Source: a virus. Taken from it: a stretch of 64,000 nt of DNA. The position numbers and the translations under genes were made by a program. Shown here in pieces: positions 2,469 to 43,385 of the stretch. A model generated the notes under the pieces. It ran no database searches and was not told the DNA's origin. It worked only from the letters and a program-made list of their open reading frames with translations. The number at the start of each line of letters is the position of its first letter. The stretch's first letter is position 1. The stretch lies in IMG/VR virus record IMGVR_UViG_3300008111_000003; one strand, given 5' to 3'.

Positions 2469-3570
2469 TTTATTCTGCCCGATCAATGGTACTGGCTATG
2501 GAATAACATCATCAAATATAGCCAAGTCCCTAAATAAAGATTTAAATATCAGTCTATTTCCTATTGGATCTAATATAGATTGTAATAGTGAAGAAGATAA
2601 ACAGCTATTCCAAAAACTATTAAATAATAGTTCTACATTCGACTATTCTGCACCATGTCTAAAAATATGGCATCAATATGATTTGGCCATGAGGGTTGGT
2701 AATGGTCACTATTATAGTTTTCCATTCTTTGAAATTGATAAATTAACACCAAGAGAAATTCATCATTTAAACTATTGCGATTATATTTTTGTGGCTTCAT
2801 CGTGGGGTAAGAAAATACTTCAGGACAACGGAGTAAATAAGCCAATTATAGTTTGTCCACTAGGTGTGGATATGAATATTTTTAATGTTCCAGAATATAA
2901 AATTCGACTAGAGAAACCCACTTATACTTTTTATCATATTGGCAAGTGGGAGCATCGTAAGTCTCAAGATGTTTTGTTACAAGCGTTTGATGCCGCATTC
3001 AGACCAGATGATAATGTACAATTATTTCTATTGCCATTTAATCCATTTCTTAATGAACAAGAAAATAATTATTGGTTTAGTTTAGTAGATAATTGTAGAT
3101 TAAAAGATAAGATTAAAGTTTTTGGACGATTACAAACTCAATATCAAGTAGCACAATTTATTGATAATTGTGATTGTGGAGTCTTCGTATCTAGAGCAGA
3201 GGGCTGGAATAATGAAATTATAGAAAGTATGGCTATGAATAAACCTGTTATAGTAACAAATTATTCAGCTCATACTGAATACTGTAATAAAGACAATTCT
3301 TATCTGGTAGATATTGATAGCCTTGAGCCTGCTAATGACGGAAAATGGTTTGATGGGTCCGGTAATTGGGCTAAAATAGGACAAAATCAATTTGATCAAA
3401 TCGTTTCTCATATGAAATTTGTGTATAGTAACCATATAGACTCTAATTCCAATGGAGTTTTAACGGCCAAAAAATATAGTTGGGATCATACTGCCAGTAT
3501 TATACAATCATCATTCCTTAAGAATAATAGTTATTATGCCAATACCAAAAAGAAAACAAAACGAAGATAA
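2455..3570 (+). CDS. Glycosyltransferase family 4 (GT-B)
   Basis: TGYG, GKWEHRKSQD, SRAEGWN..IIESMAMNKPVIVTNYS. Confidence 0.85.
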   Translation: MKNLNLFCPINGTGYGITSSNIAKSLNKDLNISLFPIGSNIDCNSEEDKQLFQKLLNNSSTFDYSAPCLKIWHQYDLAMRVGNGHYYSFPFFEIDKLTPREIHHLNYCDYIFVASSWGKKILQDNGVNKPIIVCPLGVDMNIFNVPEYKIRLEKPTYTFYHIGKWEHRKSQDVLLQAFDAAFRPDDNVQLFLLPFNPFLNEQENNYWFSLVDNCRLKDKIKVFGRLQTQYQVAQFIDNCDCGVFVSRAEGWNNEIIESMAMNKPVIVTNYSAHTEYCNKDNSYLVDIDSLEPANDGKWFDGSGNWAKIGQNQFDQIVSHMKFVYSNHIDSNSNGVLTAKKYSWDHTASIIQSSFLKNNSYYANTKKKTKRR

Positions 3571-37041: not shown

Positions 37042-37569
37042 ATGCCAGCTAAAAAATATTTTATAACTAAAGAATATTTAGAAGAACATTATACCAAACA
37101 AAAAAAGAGCACAACCACCATAGCAAAAGAATTAGGACTTAAATCCACAAATACGCTTAAAAGATTATTAAAAAAATACGATATACCCAACAATAATAAT
37201 AGGGCTGGTAGGCCAGTAAAAACCACACAAAAATTTGGTGAAATACACAAATCATATATCTGTACATTAAGATTACGAGCAAAAAGATTAGATTATGAAT
37301 TCAATTTAAATGGAAAATTTTTATGGGAATTATTTCTAAAACAAAATAGAAAATGTGCTTTATCTGGCATAGAAATAGGATTTCCTCAAGCCTGGGGCGT
37401 TAAAAGTAAAACAGATATTACTGCGTCTCTAGATAGAATAGATAGTAATAAAGGATATACAAAAGATAATGTGCAATGGGTACACAAGCATATAAACACT
37501 ATGAAAATGCATATGACAGATATGGAGTTTATAAGTATCTGTAAGAAAGTAGCGGAATACAACAAGTGA
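37042..37569 (+). CDS. Free-standing HNH-type homing endonuclease
   Basis: N-terminal HTH; Q..KCALSG, SLDRIDS.KGY..DNVQWVHK.IN.MK. Confidence 0.85.
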   Translation: MPAKKYFITKEYLEEHYTKQKKSTTTIAKELGLKSTNTLKRLLKKYDIPNNNNRAGRPVKTTQKFGEIHKSYICTLRLRAKRLDYEFNLNGKFLWELFLKQNRKCALSGIEIGFPQAWGVKSKTDITASLDRIDSNKGYTKDNVQWVHKHINTMKMHMTDMEFISICKKVAEYNK

Positions 37570-38696: not shown

Positions 38697-39416
38697 ATGA
38701 GAGGCAGAAAAGTAGACAATGGTCGTTTTGTAAAATGTTACGATAATAAATTAACAAAAAAATATCTAGAAAAAGAATATCCAAAACAAGGAGCCTATAA
38801 AATAGCTAAAAGTTTGGGGATTCACGTTAAAACCGTATATAATTATTTAGGATATTACAAAATACCAAGAACTAGACAAGAAAATAATAAAATTAAAAAA
38901 GGCCAAATTTTTGGATTGTTAACTTTAGTAGAACCTGTTGGAAAATTAAAAAACGGCACAATTACATGGAAGTGTATGTGTGACTGCGGAAGCGAGACAA
39001 TAGTACCATCCTCTAGGATAAAAATAGGCAAGGTTAAAAGTTGTGGCTGTTTGAACAAAATTAGTGGCTCAAAAAGATGGAATTGGAAGGGGTATTGTGG
39101 TATTAGTGGAAGCAGATTTTGTGAGATTAGATTAAGAGCCAAAAAGAAAAAATGGGATTTCAACCTAACTCCAAAATTCTTATGGGAACTATTTCAACAA
39201 CAAAACAAGAGATGTGCTATAACTAATGAAATTATAGATTTGAATATTGATGGATCATTAGATAGGATAGACAGTTCAAAAGGATATGTAAAAAATAACG
39301 TTTGGTGGGTTAAAAAAGATATAAATAAGATGAAACTAGACTTTCCATTAAATTTGTTTATCGAATTATGTGAGAAGGTTGTAGCCAATAAGGAGAATAT
39401 AAGAAATGGGCGTTGA
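38697..39416 (+). CDS. Free-standing HNH-type homing endonuclease, paralogue of 37042..37569
   Basis: HTH, W.C.CDCG...SCGC, SLDRIDSSKGY..NNV.WV...IN.MK. Confidence 0.85.
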   Translation: MRGRKVDNGRFVKCYDNKLTKKYLEKEYPKQGAYKIAKSLGIHVKTVYNYLGYYKIPRTRQENNKIKKGQIFGLLTLVEPVGKLKNGTITWKCMCDCGSETIVPSSRIKIGKVKSCGCLNKISGSKRWNWKGYCGISGSRFCEIRLRAKKKKWDFNLTPKFLWELFQQQNKRCAITNEIIDLNIDGSLDRIDSSKGYVKNNVWWVKKDINKMKLDFPLNLFIELCEKVVANKENIRNGR

Positions 39417-39450
39417 GCAACGATATGTGCCGCTACACGTCCATTCCTAA
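39406..39450 (+). CDS. dnaE: DnaE extreme N-terminal peptide MGVEQRYVPLHVHS (not in ORF track)
   Basis: AGGAG SD at 39391; carries the PHP HxH motif missing from the 39458 ORF, which continues MFSLLDG. Confidence 0.8.
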   Translation: MGVEQRYVPLHVHS

Positions 39451-39457
39451 GTGAACT

Positions 39458-40843
39458 ATGTTTTCACTTTTGGATGGACTATCCAAACCAGAGCAAATAG
39501 CAGAAAGATGCAAAGAGATCGGAGCATCTGCTTGTGCGTTAACAGATCATGGTAACATAGCAGGAACCATCAAGTTTTATACTGCTATGAAAAAAGCTGG
39601 ACTAAAGCCTATACTTGGATGTGAACTTTACATTTGTAGTCAAAACCCAAAAATCAAAGAAAAAGATAACAAAAAACTAAGTCATTTTCTGGTATTGGCT
39701 AAGAATTATTCAGGATGGAGAAATCTTATCAAGATAGTTTCATCATCCAATAATCCAGAATATTATTATCATAAGCCGAGATTGGATTTACCAACACTAA
39801 AAGATCTTCATTCAGGGGATTTGATCGGAATAACTGGTCATCTTGGATCAACACTAGCAGATCAAATACTAGACGGGGATGCTCTTAGAGATGATTGGCA
39901 AAATATAGGAGTACAACATATATCTTATCTTAAGACTATATTTGGTGATCATTTGTTTTTGGAAGCTCAATTAATAGATAAAGATAATCTGCCAATCCAA
40001 GAAATCCTCACAAACTGCATCAGAAAATTGGGACAATTAACCAATACTAAAGTTATATGTACTCCTGATGCTCATTATTGTCGCAAAGAGGATGCTGTTG
40101 ATCAGCGAGTATTATTGTGCAACAATCTTAAGATTACATTCTCTGATATTAGTCGTAAAATCATAAACGATCAAGATATTCCTATGGGGTGCTTTTTTAC
40201 ATCAGATAATTATCATATTCCATCTCAGGAGGAAATGAAGAACATACACACAGAAGAAGAAATCAATAATACAAATTTTGTGTGTGATTTAGTGGAAGAA
40301 TATAACATACTAAGTAAACCTAAATTACCATTATTTAAATGTCCACCAAATTTCTCTCAGGATGAATATTTAAGAGAACTGTGTAGAAACGGATGGAGAG
40401 ATAAAATAGCAAATGTTGTACCTAAAGAAGATCAACAACCATACTTGGATCGTATCAAATACGAACTAGAGGTTTTACAGGGTGCTGGGCTGAGTAGTTA
40501 TTTTTTAATAGTACAAGATATTGTGAACTATGTTAAAAGAGAAGGATGGCTTCCGGGACCGGGACGAGGTTGTTTTATACCAGAAACAAGAGTTAAAATG
40601 GCTTCTGGTGAATTGATGCCTATCTATAATATAGAAATAGGAGATCAAGTAATAGATGCTTTTGGAAATAAACAAAGAGTCTATGATATAATGAGATATG
40701 AAATAGATGAAGAAATACTGGAAATAGAATTAGAAAATGGTAAAATCATAAGATGTACAAAAGATCATAGATTTTTAACACTAAATAGGGGTTGGGTTGA
40801 AGCCCAGTATCTATCAGAAAATGATGATTTGGCCAAAATATAA
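39458..40843 (+). CDS. dnaE: DNA polymerase III alpha, PHP/N-terminal fragment fused to the N-half of a split intein
   Basis: SLLDG, ALTDHG, GCE, DAHY, R..YEL, YFLIV.D, GPGRG, then intein CFIPET. Confidence 0.93.
   Translation: MFSLLDGLSKPEQIAERCKEIGASACALTDHGNIAGTIKFYTAMKKAGLKPILGCELYICSQNPKIKEKDNKKLSHFLVLAKNYSGWRNLIKIVSSSNNPEYYYHKPRLDLPTLKDLHSGDLIGITGHLGSTLADQILDGDALRDDWQNIGVQHISYLKTIFGDHLFLEAQLIDKDNLPIQEILTNCIRKLGQLTNTKVICTPDAHYCRKEDAVDQRVLLCNNLKITFSDISRKIINDQDIPMGCFFTSDNYHIPSQEEMKNIHTEEEINNTNFVCDLVEEYNILSKPKLPLFKCPPNFSQDEYLRELCRNGWRDKIANVVPKEDQQPYLDRIKYELEVLQGAGLSSYFLIVQDIVNYVKREGWLPGPGRGCFIPETRVKMASGELMPIYNIEIGDQVIDAFGNKQRVYDIMRYEIDEEILEIELENGKIIRCTKDHRFLTLNRGWVEAQYLSENDDLAKI
40571..40840 (+). 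mobile_element. Split intein N-fragment (90 aa)
   Basis: Block A CFIPETRV, block B CTKDHRFLT, GW.EA..L...D; ends at a stop codon. Confidence 0.9.
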
Positions 40844-40845
40844 TA

Positions 40846-40863
40846 AGAACCTCTTCCTGGACC
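40846..40863 (-). promoter_or_regulatory. Inverted copy of the intein-less insertion site (reads GPGRGS on the minus strand)
   Basis: Reverse complement is GGT CCA GGA AGA GGT TCT; ends 6 nt before the GGTGTAT motif at 40870. Confidence 0.7.
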
Positions 40864-40900
40864 ACTTTTGGTGTATCCTACTATGAAAGGACAATCTTGT

Positions 40901-41719
40901 ATGGAATATATAGCATTTAAATCTTTACAAGACAATAATTTTGAATACAGGGGATTAAGCAATAAACCTATTAAAGACATATGTATAAAATGCAATAAAA
41001 CTTTTGAATACGCTAAACTTAAGAAATTTATTAGGAGCAGAGTAAACATCCCAAAAATATATTGGTGTCAATGTCAGAAATGTTTTTTGCGATATAGAAC
41101 TATTGATAATTCAGACTGGATAGAAAAAAATAGGAAAGCACAACTTATAGCGCAAAATAAAGAAGAACAAAAGAAAAAGAACGCGGAGGCAGTATCAAAA
41201 TCTTGGACAAGAACAAGAAAAAATAAAGCTTCTGAATATCTTAAAGAAAGATGGGTTAATGATGAGGCTTTTAAAAATAAGGCTACTCTTAATTTAACCA
41301 ATAATAGAAGATATAATTTTACAAACGGAATTGCTACTGGGGGTCTTAGAGGATTATATAACGATATATACTATGATAGTGCGCTAGAACTATCTTTTAT
41401 ATTGTGGTGTGAATACAATAGTATGCCGATTAAAAGATATGATCAAGATTCTATTAAGTATGTAGATGAAAATACTATCGAAAGAGAATATTTTCCTGAT
41501 TTTATTATCAATAACACAACTATTGTCGAAATAAAAGGAAAAGGAATTTGGTATAATCGACACTTTGAACGCAATAAATTAAAAATGATAGCAGCAAAGA
41601 CCAAATTTAATGCAAAGTATTGCATATATTACGACTGGGATGAACAAACAAAATTATTTTATCGAAAGGCTAGAAAATTACATCATGAAAATAAAAAGAA
41701 AAACGTCGCTATCATATAA
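40901..41719 (+). CDS. Free-standing PD-(D/E)XK (TnsA N-terminal-like) homing endonuclease between the intein halves
   Basis: Zinc ribbon C..C...C..C; YDS.LE..F, YFPDF, IVEIKG; start 40901 (AAGGA SD) or 40883. Confidence 0.75.
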   Translation: MEYIAFKSLQDNNFEYRGLSNKPIKDICIKCNKTFEYAKLKKFIRSRVNIPKIYWCQCQKCFLRYRTIDNSDWIEKNRKAQLIAQNKEEQKKKNAEAVSKSWTRTRKNKASEYLKERWVNDEAFKNKATLNLTNNRRYNFTNGIATGGLRGLYNDIYYDSALELSFILWCEYNSMPIKRYDQDSIKYVDENTIEREYFPDFIINNTTIVEIKGKGIWYNRHFERNKLKMIAAKTKFNAKYCIYYDWDEQTKLFYRKARKLHHENKKKNVAII

Positions 41720-42518
41720 GGGTACTGTGTGCGATTTGTCTGTAACCAATACAGCATCTTATAATGTTGAAGGGATTGGAGTACACAATAGTGCGGCGGG
41801 GTGTTTGGTATCCTATCTCATCGGCATAACTAATATTGATCCTATAAAATATAGTCTGCTTTTTGAAAGATTCTATAATGAGGGTCGTAACACAGCAGAC
41901 AATATTTCCATGCCAGATATTGATGTAGATATACCTATCGAAAAGCGAGAAATGGTTATTCAATATATCAAAGACAAATATGGTTCGGACAAAGTTTCTC
42001 AAATGGTTACTTTCAATACGATCAAGGGTAGGGGCGCACTAAAAGACGTATTAAGAGTATATGGTAATATTACATTTGAAGAAATGAATAAGATAACCAA
42101 AAATATCCCCGATGAGTCTAAGATTGCCGATGATCTTCAAGAGATGAAAGAAGAAACTGGCGAAGCATCCATCGTTCGATGGGCTTTGGAAAACGATAAT
42201 GATAAGCTTAAAGAATGGTGCTTTATTGATGAAAAAGGACAACTACAAGGCCTCTTGTCAAAAAGGTTTGAACAGGCTATTAGACTAGAGGGCACCAAGT
42301 CAAATCAGTCCAAACATGCTGCTGGTATTGCTATCAGTAGTGAACCATTAAATGAATTATGTCCTATGGTTTATGATAGTAAGAATGATCAGTTAATAGC
42401 AGGAATGGAGATGCAAGACTTGGAAAGCATAGGAATTATTAAGTTTGATATTCTTGGTGTTGCTCTTCTTGATAAAGTGATGACAATCAGAGACCTTTTA
42501 AATGAAGGAGTTCAATAA
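41685..42518 (+). CDS. dnaE: Split intein C-fragment (35 aa, 41685-41789) + DnaE catalytic palm fragment
   Basis: MKIKRK...VCDLSV...SYNVEGIGVHN|SAAGCLVSYL.GIT.IDP, FERF.N..R, PDIDVD, HAAG, KFDILG. Confidence 0.93.
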   Translation: MKIKRKTSLSYKGTVCDLSVTNTASYNVEGIGVHNSAAGCLVSYLIGITNIDPIKYSLLFERFYNEGRNTADNISMPDIDVDIPIEKREMVIQYIKDKYGSDKVSQMVTFNTIKGRGALKDVLRVYGNITFEEMNKITKNIPDESKIADDLQEMKEETGEASIVRWALENDNDKLKEWCFIDEKGQLQGLLSKRFEQAIRLEGTKSNQSKHAAGIAISSEPLNELCPMVYDSKNDQLIAGMEMQDLESIGIIKFDILGVALLDKVMTIRDLLNEGVQ

Positions 42519-42703
42519 TGATGGTTAAGTTTAAAGATGTGGCTGAAAATACATTATTTAGCAAAGATGGTGTGGAATTCAAAAAAATACAACTAGTAAA
42601 AATTAGTTGTTGTAAAACAATAAATGCTATACAAGTATTAGATCCTAGAAATAGAGTGCTTTTTAATCAAGAAGATGAAGTAGAAGTGAATGATCAACTA
42701 TAA
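42518..42703 (+). CDS. Small hypothetical protein
   Basis: GGAG SD; TAATG coupling. Confidence 0.55.
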   Translation: MMVKFKDVAENTLFSKDGVEFKKIQLVKISCCKTINAIQVLDPRNRVLFNQEDEVEVNDQL

Positions 42704-43385
42704 TAAGATTTGTGTTTTTGATTTTGAGACAGACGGATCGGATCCATCAGAATGCAGTCCTGTACAGATTGCTGCTATTATGATAGATCCATTAAATTTG
42801 GACATTATACCCGGCTCAGAGTTCAATATAAACTTTAGGCCAGAAGTTTTGGAAAACAACGAAAACTACAAATACGAAACAGATATATTAGATTTTCATT
42901 CAAAGGTTAAAGGGTGTTCTCAAGACGAGGTTTTAGCCTCGTGGTATAAATATCCTAAACAGGATCATTCTTGGAAATTATTCACAGCCTATTTGGATAA
43001 ATACCATTCACGAGCAACTAAAAAAAGTCAATTTTCTGCACCTATTGCTGCTGGTTATAATATACATAGATTTGATCTACATATCATAGACAGATTAAGC
43101 AAAAAGTATGGTAATTTGAACAAAGAAAAAAGAACAGATTTATTTTATCCTAGAGACACTATAGATGCTATGCAATTAATGTTTTATTGGTTTGAGCATA
43201 GTAGTGATCTTAAAAGTTATTCGTTAGATACTGTGAGAGATTATCTGGGAATTAGCAAAGATGGTGCTCACGATGCTCTAAAAGATGTTCAGGATACAGC
43301 AGCAATAATAATTAGGTTTTTAAAGTTACATCGTAATTTGGGACAAAAGGTAAAGTTTAAGAATTCTTTTGCAAATCAGGCATGA
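42690..43385 (+). CDS. DEDDh 3'-5' exonuclease (DnaQ/epsilon-like)
   Basis: DFETDG, GYNI..FD, AHDALKDV. Confidence 0.9.
   Translation: MINYNKICVFDFETDGSDPSECSPVQIAAIMIDPLNLDIIPGSEFNINFRPEVLENNENYKYETDILDFHSKVKGCSQDEVLASWYKYPKQDHSWKLFTAYLDKYHSRATKKSQFSAPIAAGYNIHRFDLHIIDRLSKKYGNLNKEKRTDLFYPRDTIDAMQLMFYWFEHSSDLKSYSLDTVRDYLGISKDGAHDALKDVQDTAAIIIRFLKLHRNLGQKVKFKNSFANQA

Follow-up and report, generated by a model that had tools for sequence, protein, structure and literature searches.

In the DNA considered here, a viral stretch of 64,000 nucleotides hereafter called the window, AT-rich and phage-like with about 32% GC, the gene dnaE is broken by a split intein at GPGRG|S, i.e. GPGRG|C...IntN stop on one side and IntC...VHN|SAAG on the other. 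Between the IntN stop and the ATG of a gene for a free-standing endonuclease, a gap of 57 nt holds an 18-mer which, read on the minus strand, encodes GPGRGS, namely the insertion site of the intein in its uninterrupted form. The question raised by this locus is what such a copy of the empty site does directly in front of the endonuclease gene, and whether it is a relic, a guide for the nuclease or part of a control device. The layout is that of the fractured genes described by Dassa et al. (2009), as the gene of a conserved enzyme is broken by IntN and IntC at one site and the free-standing endonuclease gene lies between the two intein halves, overlapping the start of IntC (Table 1).

Table 1. 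Features of the dnaE split-intein locus, with positions in the window
Feature	Position	Strand	Evidence
dnaE N-extein (PHP and start of the Pol III alpha catalytic domain)	39458..40570	+	
Intein insertion (homing) site, upstream half, GPGRG codons	40556..40570	+	
IntN, 90 aa, beginning with Cys1, plus TAA stop	40571..40843	+	Intein_splicing E 6e-9
A/T flank in place of the GCN GCN (Ala-Ala) half of the target	40841..40845	-	
18-bp homing-site mimic, minus strand GPGRGS; putative operator	40846..40863	-	
T-rich spacer ACTTTT, 6 nt	40864..40869	+	
GGTGTAT promoter-like motif; putative phage promoter of the endonuclease gene	40870..40879	+	
Shine-Dalgarno-like AAGGA	40887..40891	+	sequence inspection
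Free-standing endonuclease, 272 aa, ATG at 40901	40901..41719	+	
IntC, 35 aa, C-terminal VHN; start overlaps the endonuclease gene	41685..41789	+	
dnaE C-extein, beginning SAAG, Ser codon AGT	41790..42518	+	

The surroundings of the cassette show further peculiarities. A second split of dnaE, this time without an intein, occurs at 42518-43382, where a 61-aa ORF and a DEDDh exonuclease gene lie between the pieces. At the 5' end of dnaE (39406-39460), 10 nt beginning with a stop codon (39448-39457) come right after the PHP motif YVPLHVHS and shift the frame to MFSLLDG, the true start of the N-extein being probably at 39406. A stop-initial insert of 10 or 8 nt is found at the same place in about 19 related loci (L151, L153, L166, L169, L179, L182, L183, L187-189, L195, L196, L064-66, L144, L224 and L017) and is absent in 75; in L144, neither ATG nor GTG is available for a restart. 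The insert might be explained by translational bypass, or else a 14-aa peptide might be made on its own. Besides, two more free-standing HNH-like endonuclease genes (37042-37569 and 38697-39416), each preceded by a GTGTAT motif, flank a PD-(D/E)XK exonuclease gene, and the one before dnaE is absent from the closest relatives (L001-L004). In two other loci (L125 and L128), the intein sits one residue later in the same motif (GPGRGS|C), i.e. at a neighbouring insertion site.

Regarding the 18-mer itself, its first base (40846) is the last base of a second TAA after IntN. A degenerate GPGRG[S/C] pattern has only two matches in the whole window, namely the element on the minus strand and the N-extein of the locus at 40556 on the plus strand, while shuffled sequences give 0.01 expected matches per window and none of 100 shuffles reaches two, so that a chance origin can be rejected. 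The homing site being deduced from the position of the intein, the rejoined exteins of the window differ from the element at five of the 18 positions (3, 6, 10, 16 and 17), that is 13/18 identical nucleotides for 18/18 at the amino-acid level. The factual part of the sequence-only reading thus holds throughout, i.e. an inverted copy of the intein-free site between IntN and the endonuclease gene, written in codons other than those of the resident exteins and ending 6 nt before GGTGTAT. The comparison with intein-less dnaE genes that it had proposed finds the exact 18-mer in such genes of other phages, among them L130 with a dnaE similar to that of the window. Its remark that the element is written in codons typical of the phage is right for the window, where CCA (55%) and AGA (66%) are common, and fails as an argument for capture, since the elements of relatives favour Arg codons that are rare in the window (CGG 2%, CGA 9%). 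In the leaders of the two HNH-like genes (37042 and 38697), a search for similar mimics returned short AT-rich matches only, which are unconvincing.

For the endonuclease, 70 relatives of the 272-aa protein could be gathered, mostly at 43-84% identity, among which C28, C31, C58 and C61, an AQxIAQN motif and P199-D200...E210-x-K212 are invariant. The architecture comprises a Cys4 zinc-binding N-terminus, long basic helices and a C-terminal TnsA-N-like PD-(D/E)XK domain (predicted model, pLDDT 88). The C-terminal domain aligns with Tn7 TnsA at Z 7.0 and rmsd 4.2 over 124 residues (Foldseek probability 0.99 but E 0.06) and with Vsr and I-Bth0305I at Z 5.2-5.3 (for I-Bth0305I, Z 5.2 and rmsd 4.8 over 85 residues); Pfam, PHROGs and Atlas give weak matches to T7 endonuclease I, TnsA-N and DUF7487. 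The catalytic motif EDxHD is absent, the invariant residues being those of PD-(D/E)XK. Folded alone, the N-terminal half (zinc site and basic helices) has no clear structural match, the best one (Z 4.5) being helical only, and this is neutral on RNA binding. From its predicted fold class and its place between the intein halves, the protein would be a PD-(D/E)XK nuclease occupying the position of the homing endonuclease in a fractured gene. Every sampled member of the AQxIAQN family with readable context, very distant ones from a 50%-cluster search included, sits at dnaE GRG|S (P0132, which comes without DNA context, is outside this count), and such a constancy points to specificity encoded in the protein. 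Among cultured phages, none encodes a relative of the endonuclease, and a search of viral contigs with the single endonuclease protein gave no match. Two kinds of sister nucleases were met. In L088, a TnsA-like nuclease with a different N-terminus resides in the gene of a DnaB-like helicase, whose split intein has a very short N-part. In a second family, NUMOD3 is combined with a TnsA-like domain (L093, L100, L102, L106, L110, L120 and L121) and the genes adjoin P-loop kinase genes; their leaders contain G-x-P-x-x-G-like stretches resembling the coding sequence of the kinase Walker A motif, either operators or remnants of interrupted gene starts, and an automatic test for P-loop mimics in these leaders was mostly not significant.

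As to the targets of such an enzyme, they are abundant, since an intein is missing from 74 of the 80 dnaE genes most closely related to that of the window. The empty sites, 52 of them distinct, all encode PGPGRGSAAGCLV, and downstream of the insertion point GC-N GC-N GG-N is fixed in 52/52. The element lacks precisely this part: at its positions 19-22, T is found in 18-22 of 24 elements, and the GC-N GC-N of the target (positions 19-23) is lost. Positions 1-15 are still present in the allele that bears the intein, which has to be immune, and the determinants of cleavage would hence lie at position 16 or beyond; the match of the window being perfect across 18 bp, the immunity of its element would rest wholly on the missing downstream half. 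One observation tells against an operator, namely that the +1 Ser is encoded by AGY in 41 of the 52 empty sites (L145-L224) and in the C-extein of the window (AGT), while the elements prefer T16, as in TCN. AGY at this codon might be a partial escape allele, although the window carries AGT in its own C-extein.

The conservation of the element was assessed in 56 related loci, three of which are near-duplicates. A weight matrix built from extein sequences only, searched right after the IntN stop and with significance set at p up to 0.05 against shuffles, detected a site in 39 of them, with enzymes down to 27% identity; a second matrix derived from these 39 elements, applied to the remaining loci across the whole gap, added seven. 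A degenerate copy is thus present in 46/56 loci, and some version of the element, as would be expected of homologous loci if it mattered, in all close loci whose leader is on the contig. With both matrices, about ten of the 56 loci, all of them borderline or with a distant enzyme, are without a significant element; the leader of L227 has no clear one either, and the short contig L225, from a MAG, has a typical one. The 24 close loci all have G11, G13 and G14, 23 of them have G8 and 22 have T16; the third codon positions vary, and the invariant G bases are those fixed by the codons of the target. Compared with the window, the changes are purely synonymous in two relatives, those at 83-84% identity. 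The elements of most others do not encode GPGRGS; SLGRGS, GPCRGF and a frame with a stop codon are examples, and a perfect GPGRGS is confined to the sub-lineage of the window, L142 and L143. Insertions were also noticed, of 3 nt between the Arg and last Gly codons in the forward elements of L052, L053 and L056 (~2587-2615), and of 2 nt in the inverted copies of L054 and L229; they may be another way to bind without cutting.

This pattern bears directly on the possibility that the element is a footprint of history devoid of present function, be it a captured piece of intact dnaE or a target-like site used when the endonuclease entered the intein. The perfect GPGRGS of the window, the occurrence of its exact 18-mer in real intein-less genes, the extension of the match into the +2 codon in L036 and L026 and the proximity of most copies to the IntN stop would all suit such an origin. 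Against it, the element is kept across enzymes of 27-60% identity while its flanks diverge, its G core does not change, and T3, C10, G12 and T16 are enriched compared with real alleles (each p < 0.001, the counts being uncorrected for relatedness). Copying from the extein of the same locus is also rejected, as elements and exteins share no third positions (p 0.2 and 0.74). What the element does follow is the residue of the host protein at codon -4 (permutation p ~0.001, uncorrected for relatedness), with Cys in L071, Val in L075 and L056 and Ile in L052 and L060, the exceptions being L014, L030, L036 and L042. Such preferences for non-allelic bases, combined with the tracking of codon -4 and the independence of third positions, are what selection for recognition by a co-evolving protein would be expected to produce, and copying from alleles would not. 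A mere footprint is therefore very unlikely and largely refuted by conservation, and the suggestion that the element is a captured intact allele does not stand as a general statement, most relatives carrying non-coding variants with base preferences unlike those of real alleles. The element is real and conserved, and very likely functional.

The position of the element indicates where this function is to be sought. In close loci, it lies 2-7 nt from a GTGTA-like motif, which is kept in all close relatives retaining a full endonuclease gene. In the window, nine of 20 plus-strand matches to the GTGTA-type motif fall in non-coding DNA, which makes up ~6% of the sequence; as the motif is enriched there and precedes both nearby HNH genes, it is probably a phage promoter. 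A scan for sigma-70 promoters found nothing over the element and no sigma-70 match in GGTGTAT itself, and the variable spacing between element and motif rules out that the element is a fixed -35 box. More telling are the loci in which it has been displaced from the intein break. In L044 and L048, which have an extra ORF between IntN and the endonuclease gene, and in L033, which has a long gap, it is 567, 202 and 129 nt, respectively, from the IntN stop and still 40-60 nt before the endonuclease ATG. Conversely, L005-7 and L079 have gained a 70-aa ORF downstream of the promoter motif, and there the element stays beside the motif. Since it moves with the leader of the endonuclease gene, the element would be part of the control region of this gene rather than a scar of the intein break, and these same displaced copies speak once more against a footprint.

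Binding of the enzyme could nonetheless serve another purpose than repression: the element may keep the nuclease in cis, as a decoy or loading site, or stop transcripts that run on from dnaE-N, as a roadblock. The sequence evidence for binding is the same as for an operator, and in nearly all loci the element is upstream of the GTGTAT motif rather than on it, which would suit this explanation. A decoy, however, has no need to stay 2-7 bp from the promoter motif or to travel with the leader, and the N-extein of the locus, 280 nt off, already scores as a near-equal site; as for a roadblock, it would cut the expression of IntC-dnaE-C too. Altogether, this other use of the same binding appears unlikely.

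The orientation of the element is informative in another respect. Most loci have it inverted. Forward copies occur in L073, which falls within a clade of 20 inverted loci with 100/100 support, in the truncated loci L084-87 and L109, and in a clade of their own (L038, L052, L053, L056, L059 and L060). On the tree, from which L109 and L032 were left out, this amounts to at least two changes of orientation. Both orientations before a promoter of one direction are tolerable for a protein site on double-stranded DNA. Of note, in L084-L087 and L109 (~2984-3255), the endonuclease gene has lost its promoter and the N-terminal two thirds, with the junction directly behind the forward element; the deletion is possibly the scar of self-cleavage next to the operator.

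The same flips within one clade, the promoter direction being unchanged, weigh heavily on the speculation of the sequence-only reading that a transcript of the element either guides the nuclease or acts in antisense on the dnaE mRNA of intein-less competitor phages. In its favour, the sense transcript of most loci would be able to pair with dnaE mRNA, the element varies along with the amino acid that the host has at codon -4, and long basic helices are present in the N-terminal half of the protein. Yet the elements show a median of 5-10 mismatches out of 18 to the 52 real alleles (4-9 when G.U pairs are allowed, on either strand), against four among alleles, this allele set, drawn from the closest dnaE relatives of the window, being best for its lineage and a looser proxy for others. 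The deviations (G>A 15, C>T 7, G>T 7) form no wobble pattern of one strand. Besides, the element is upstream of the promoter motif, in a leader of 45-70 nt with no scaffold, conserved fold or Rfam match, and programmable nucleases vary their targets, while the sampled family with readable context is all at one dnaE site. A guide or antisense function is hence highly improbable, and little credence can be given either to the version in which a read-through transcript supplies a short nucleic-acid guide that helps the TnsA-like nuclease to find intein-less dnaE, the tracking of codon -4 being then a reprogramming.

A further possibility at the RNA level is a cis element controlling translation, by pairing with its own N-extein on the dnaE-N mRNA or with the Shine-Dalgarno sequence of the endonuclease gene. 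The inverted element is complementary to its own extein at 14/18 positions, a CCTC/TCC tract could pair with the Shine-Dalgarno sequence, hairpins hiding the ribosome-binding site (RBS) are known in fractured genes (PMC2677866), and some relatives have hairpins between the promoter motif and the RBS. Pairing in cis with the extein is rejected, however, by duplex energies, which are no better with the extein of the same locus than with those of other loci (p 0.14; for GPGRG only, 0.63), and forward copies cannot pair at all. The leader of the window folds no better than shuffles (z +0.95), no common hairpin involves the element, and neither a conserved RNA hairpin nor an Rfam family was found in the leaders. 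Control of translation by such pairing is accordingly scarcely probable.

Taken together, the element is likely to be an operator for autorepression of the I-TevI type, which the enzyme would bind but not cut. The sequence-only reading had already considered a homing-site mimic acting as an autoregulatory operator, and the idea is backed by the copies in 46/56 loci, the linkage to the leader, the occurrence of both orientations and the missing half of the target. Third-position tolerance in the element is codon-periodic, as known for homing endonucleases (PMC3239194), and adds to this support together with the tracking of codon -4 and with the DnaB-associated enzyme of L088, whose leader (2426-2470) mimics its own N-extein in inverted form, with CAALSG for CAAPPG (p 0.005). 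In the proposed mechanism, the 272-aa enzyme would normally bind the GPGRG-coding arm of intein-less dnaE in related phages, cutting would be helped by bases at or beyond the insertion point, and repair would copy the split intein and endonuclease cassette into the empty allele, as in the fractured-gene model. The operator would keep the binding arm on double-stranded DNA while a T-run replaces the Ala-Ala half, which should permit binding without cutting. Once on the element, 2-7 bp from the promoter motif, the enzyme would block RNA polymerase, and this negative feedback would cap the level of the nuclease.

Should binding be confirmed, autorepression by target mimicry would have appeared in a nuclease of unrelated fold as well as in split-intein cassettes and been kept for long, and could then be viewed as a rule of design general to selfish nucleases. 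With its 46 natural copies, the element also provides a ready-made specificity profile for an uncharacterised endonuclease family. More broadly, the mimics in leaders could reveal which targets free-standing phage endonucleases have, no more than the sequence being needed, as fits the DnaB case of L088.

Among known systems, RNA-guided nucleases of mobile elements, namely OMEGA, TIGR-Tas and HEARO, share with this locus a target-like sequence beside the nuclease gene and nothing more; here, there is neither scaffold nor array, complementarity is poor, orientation flips and the target is one and fixed. The fractured genes of Dassa et al. (2009), for which DnaE is among the known hosts and the enzymes are GIY-YIG and Vsr-like, have the same organisation, i.e. 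a host gene broken in a split intein and an endonuclease gene between the halves overlapping the start of IntC. Their leaders bear hairpins with T4 late promoters and the word operator is absent from that paper (PMC2677866), whereas no such RNA hairpin is met in the endonuclease leader of the window, weak RBS hairpins being found in some relatives. I-Bth0305I, an EDxHD, Vsr-like enzyme (PMC3239194), resembles the present one in joining an N-terminal DNA-binding part to a C-terminal restriction-enzyme-like nuclease and in its codon-periodic specificity, but the catalytic motif is here PD...ExK and Tn7 TnsA is the better structural match; in the literature on I-Bth0305I, no operator is described. 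In the open literature, operators were found only for intron enzymes of T4 (I-TevI, and putatively I-TevII and I-TevIII) and none in fractured split-intein genes.

The closest parallel is I-TevI, from the td intron of phage T4 (Edgell et al., 2004), whose operator agrees with the homing site at 15 of 20 bases and is bound as well as that site; cutting is ~100-fold weaker, CXXXG being absent, and the promoter is occluded (PMC2988022). Removal of this operator from T4 has no visible effect on phage viability (PMC2988022), so that the strong conservation of the element described here counts as a puzzle against an operator. As with I-TevI, a look-alike of the homing site lies here at the putative promoter of the endonuclease gene and would lack the part needed for cutting, repression by binding without cleavage being the likely counterpart. 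Beyond this likeness, the enzyme of the window is a free-standing TnsA-like PD-(D/E)XK protein in a split intein rather than an intron-encoded GIY-YIG one, its site is mostly inverted and immediately precedes a promoter motif of non-T4 type, where that of I-TevI overlies a T4 late promoter, its orientation flips between lineages, and the element can be traced across dozens of diverged loci. In other words, the element is probably a familiar control device in modified form, carried by a nuclease family still uncharacterised, and it is neither a new class of system nor a new guided system.
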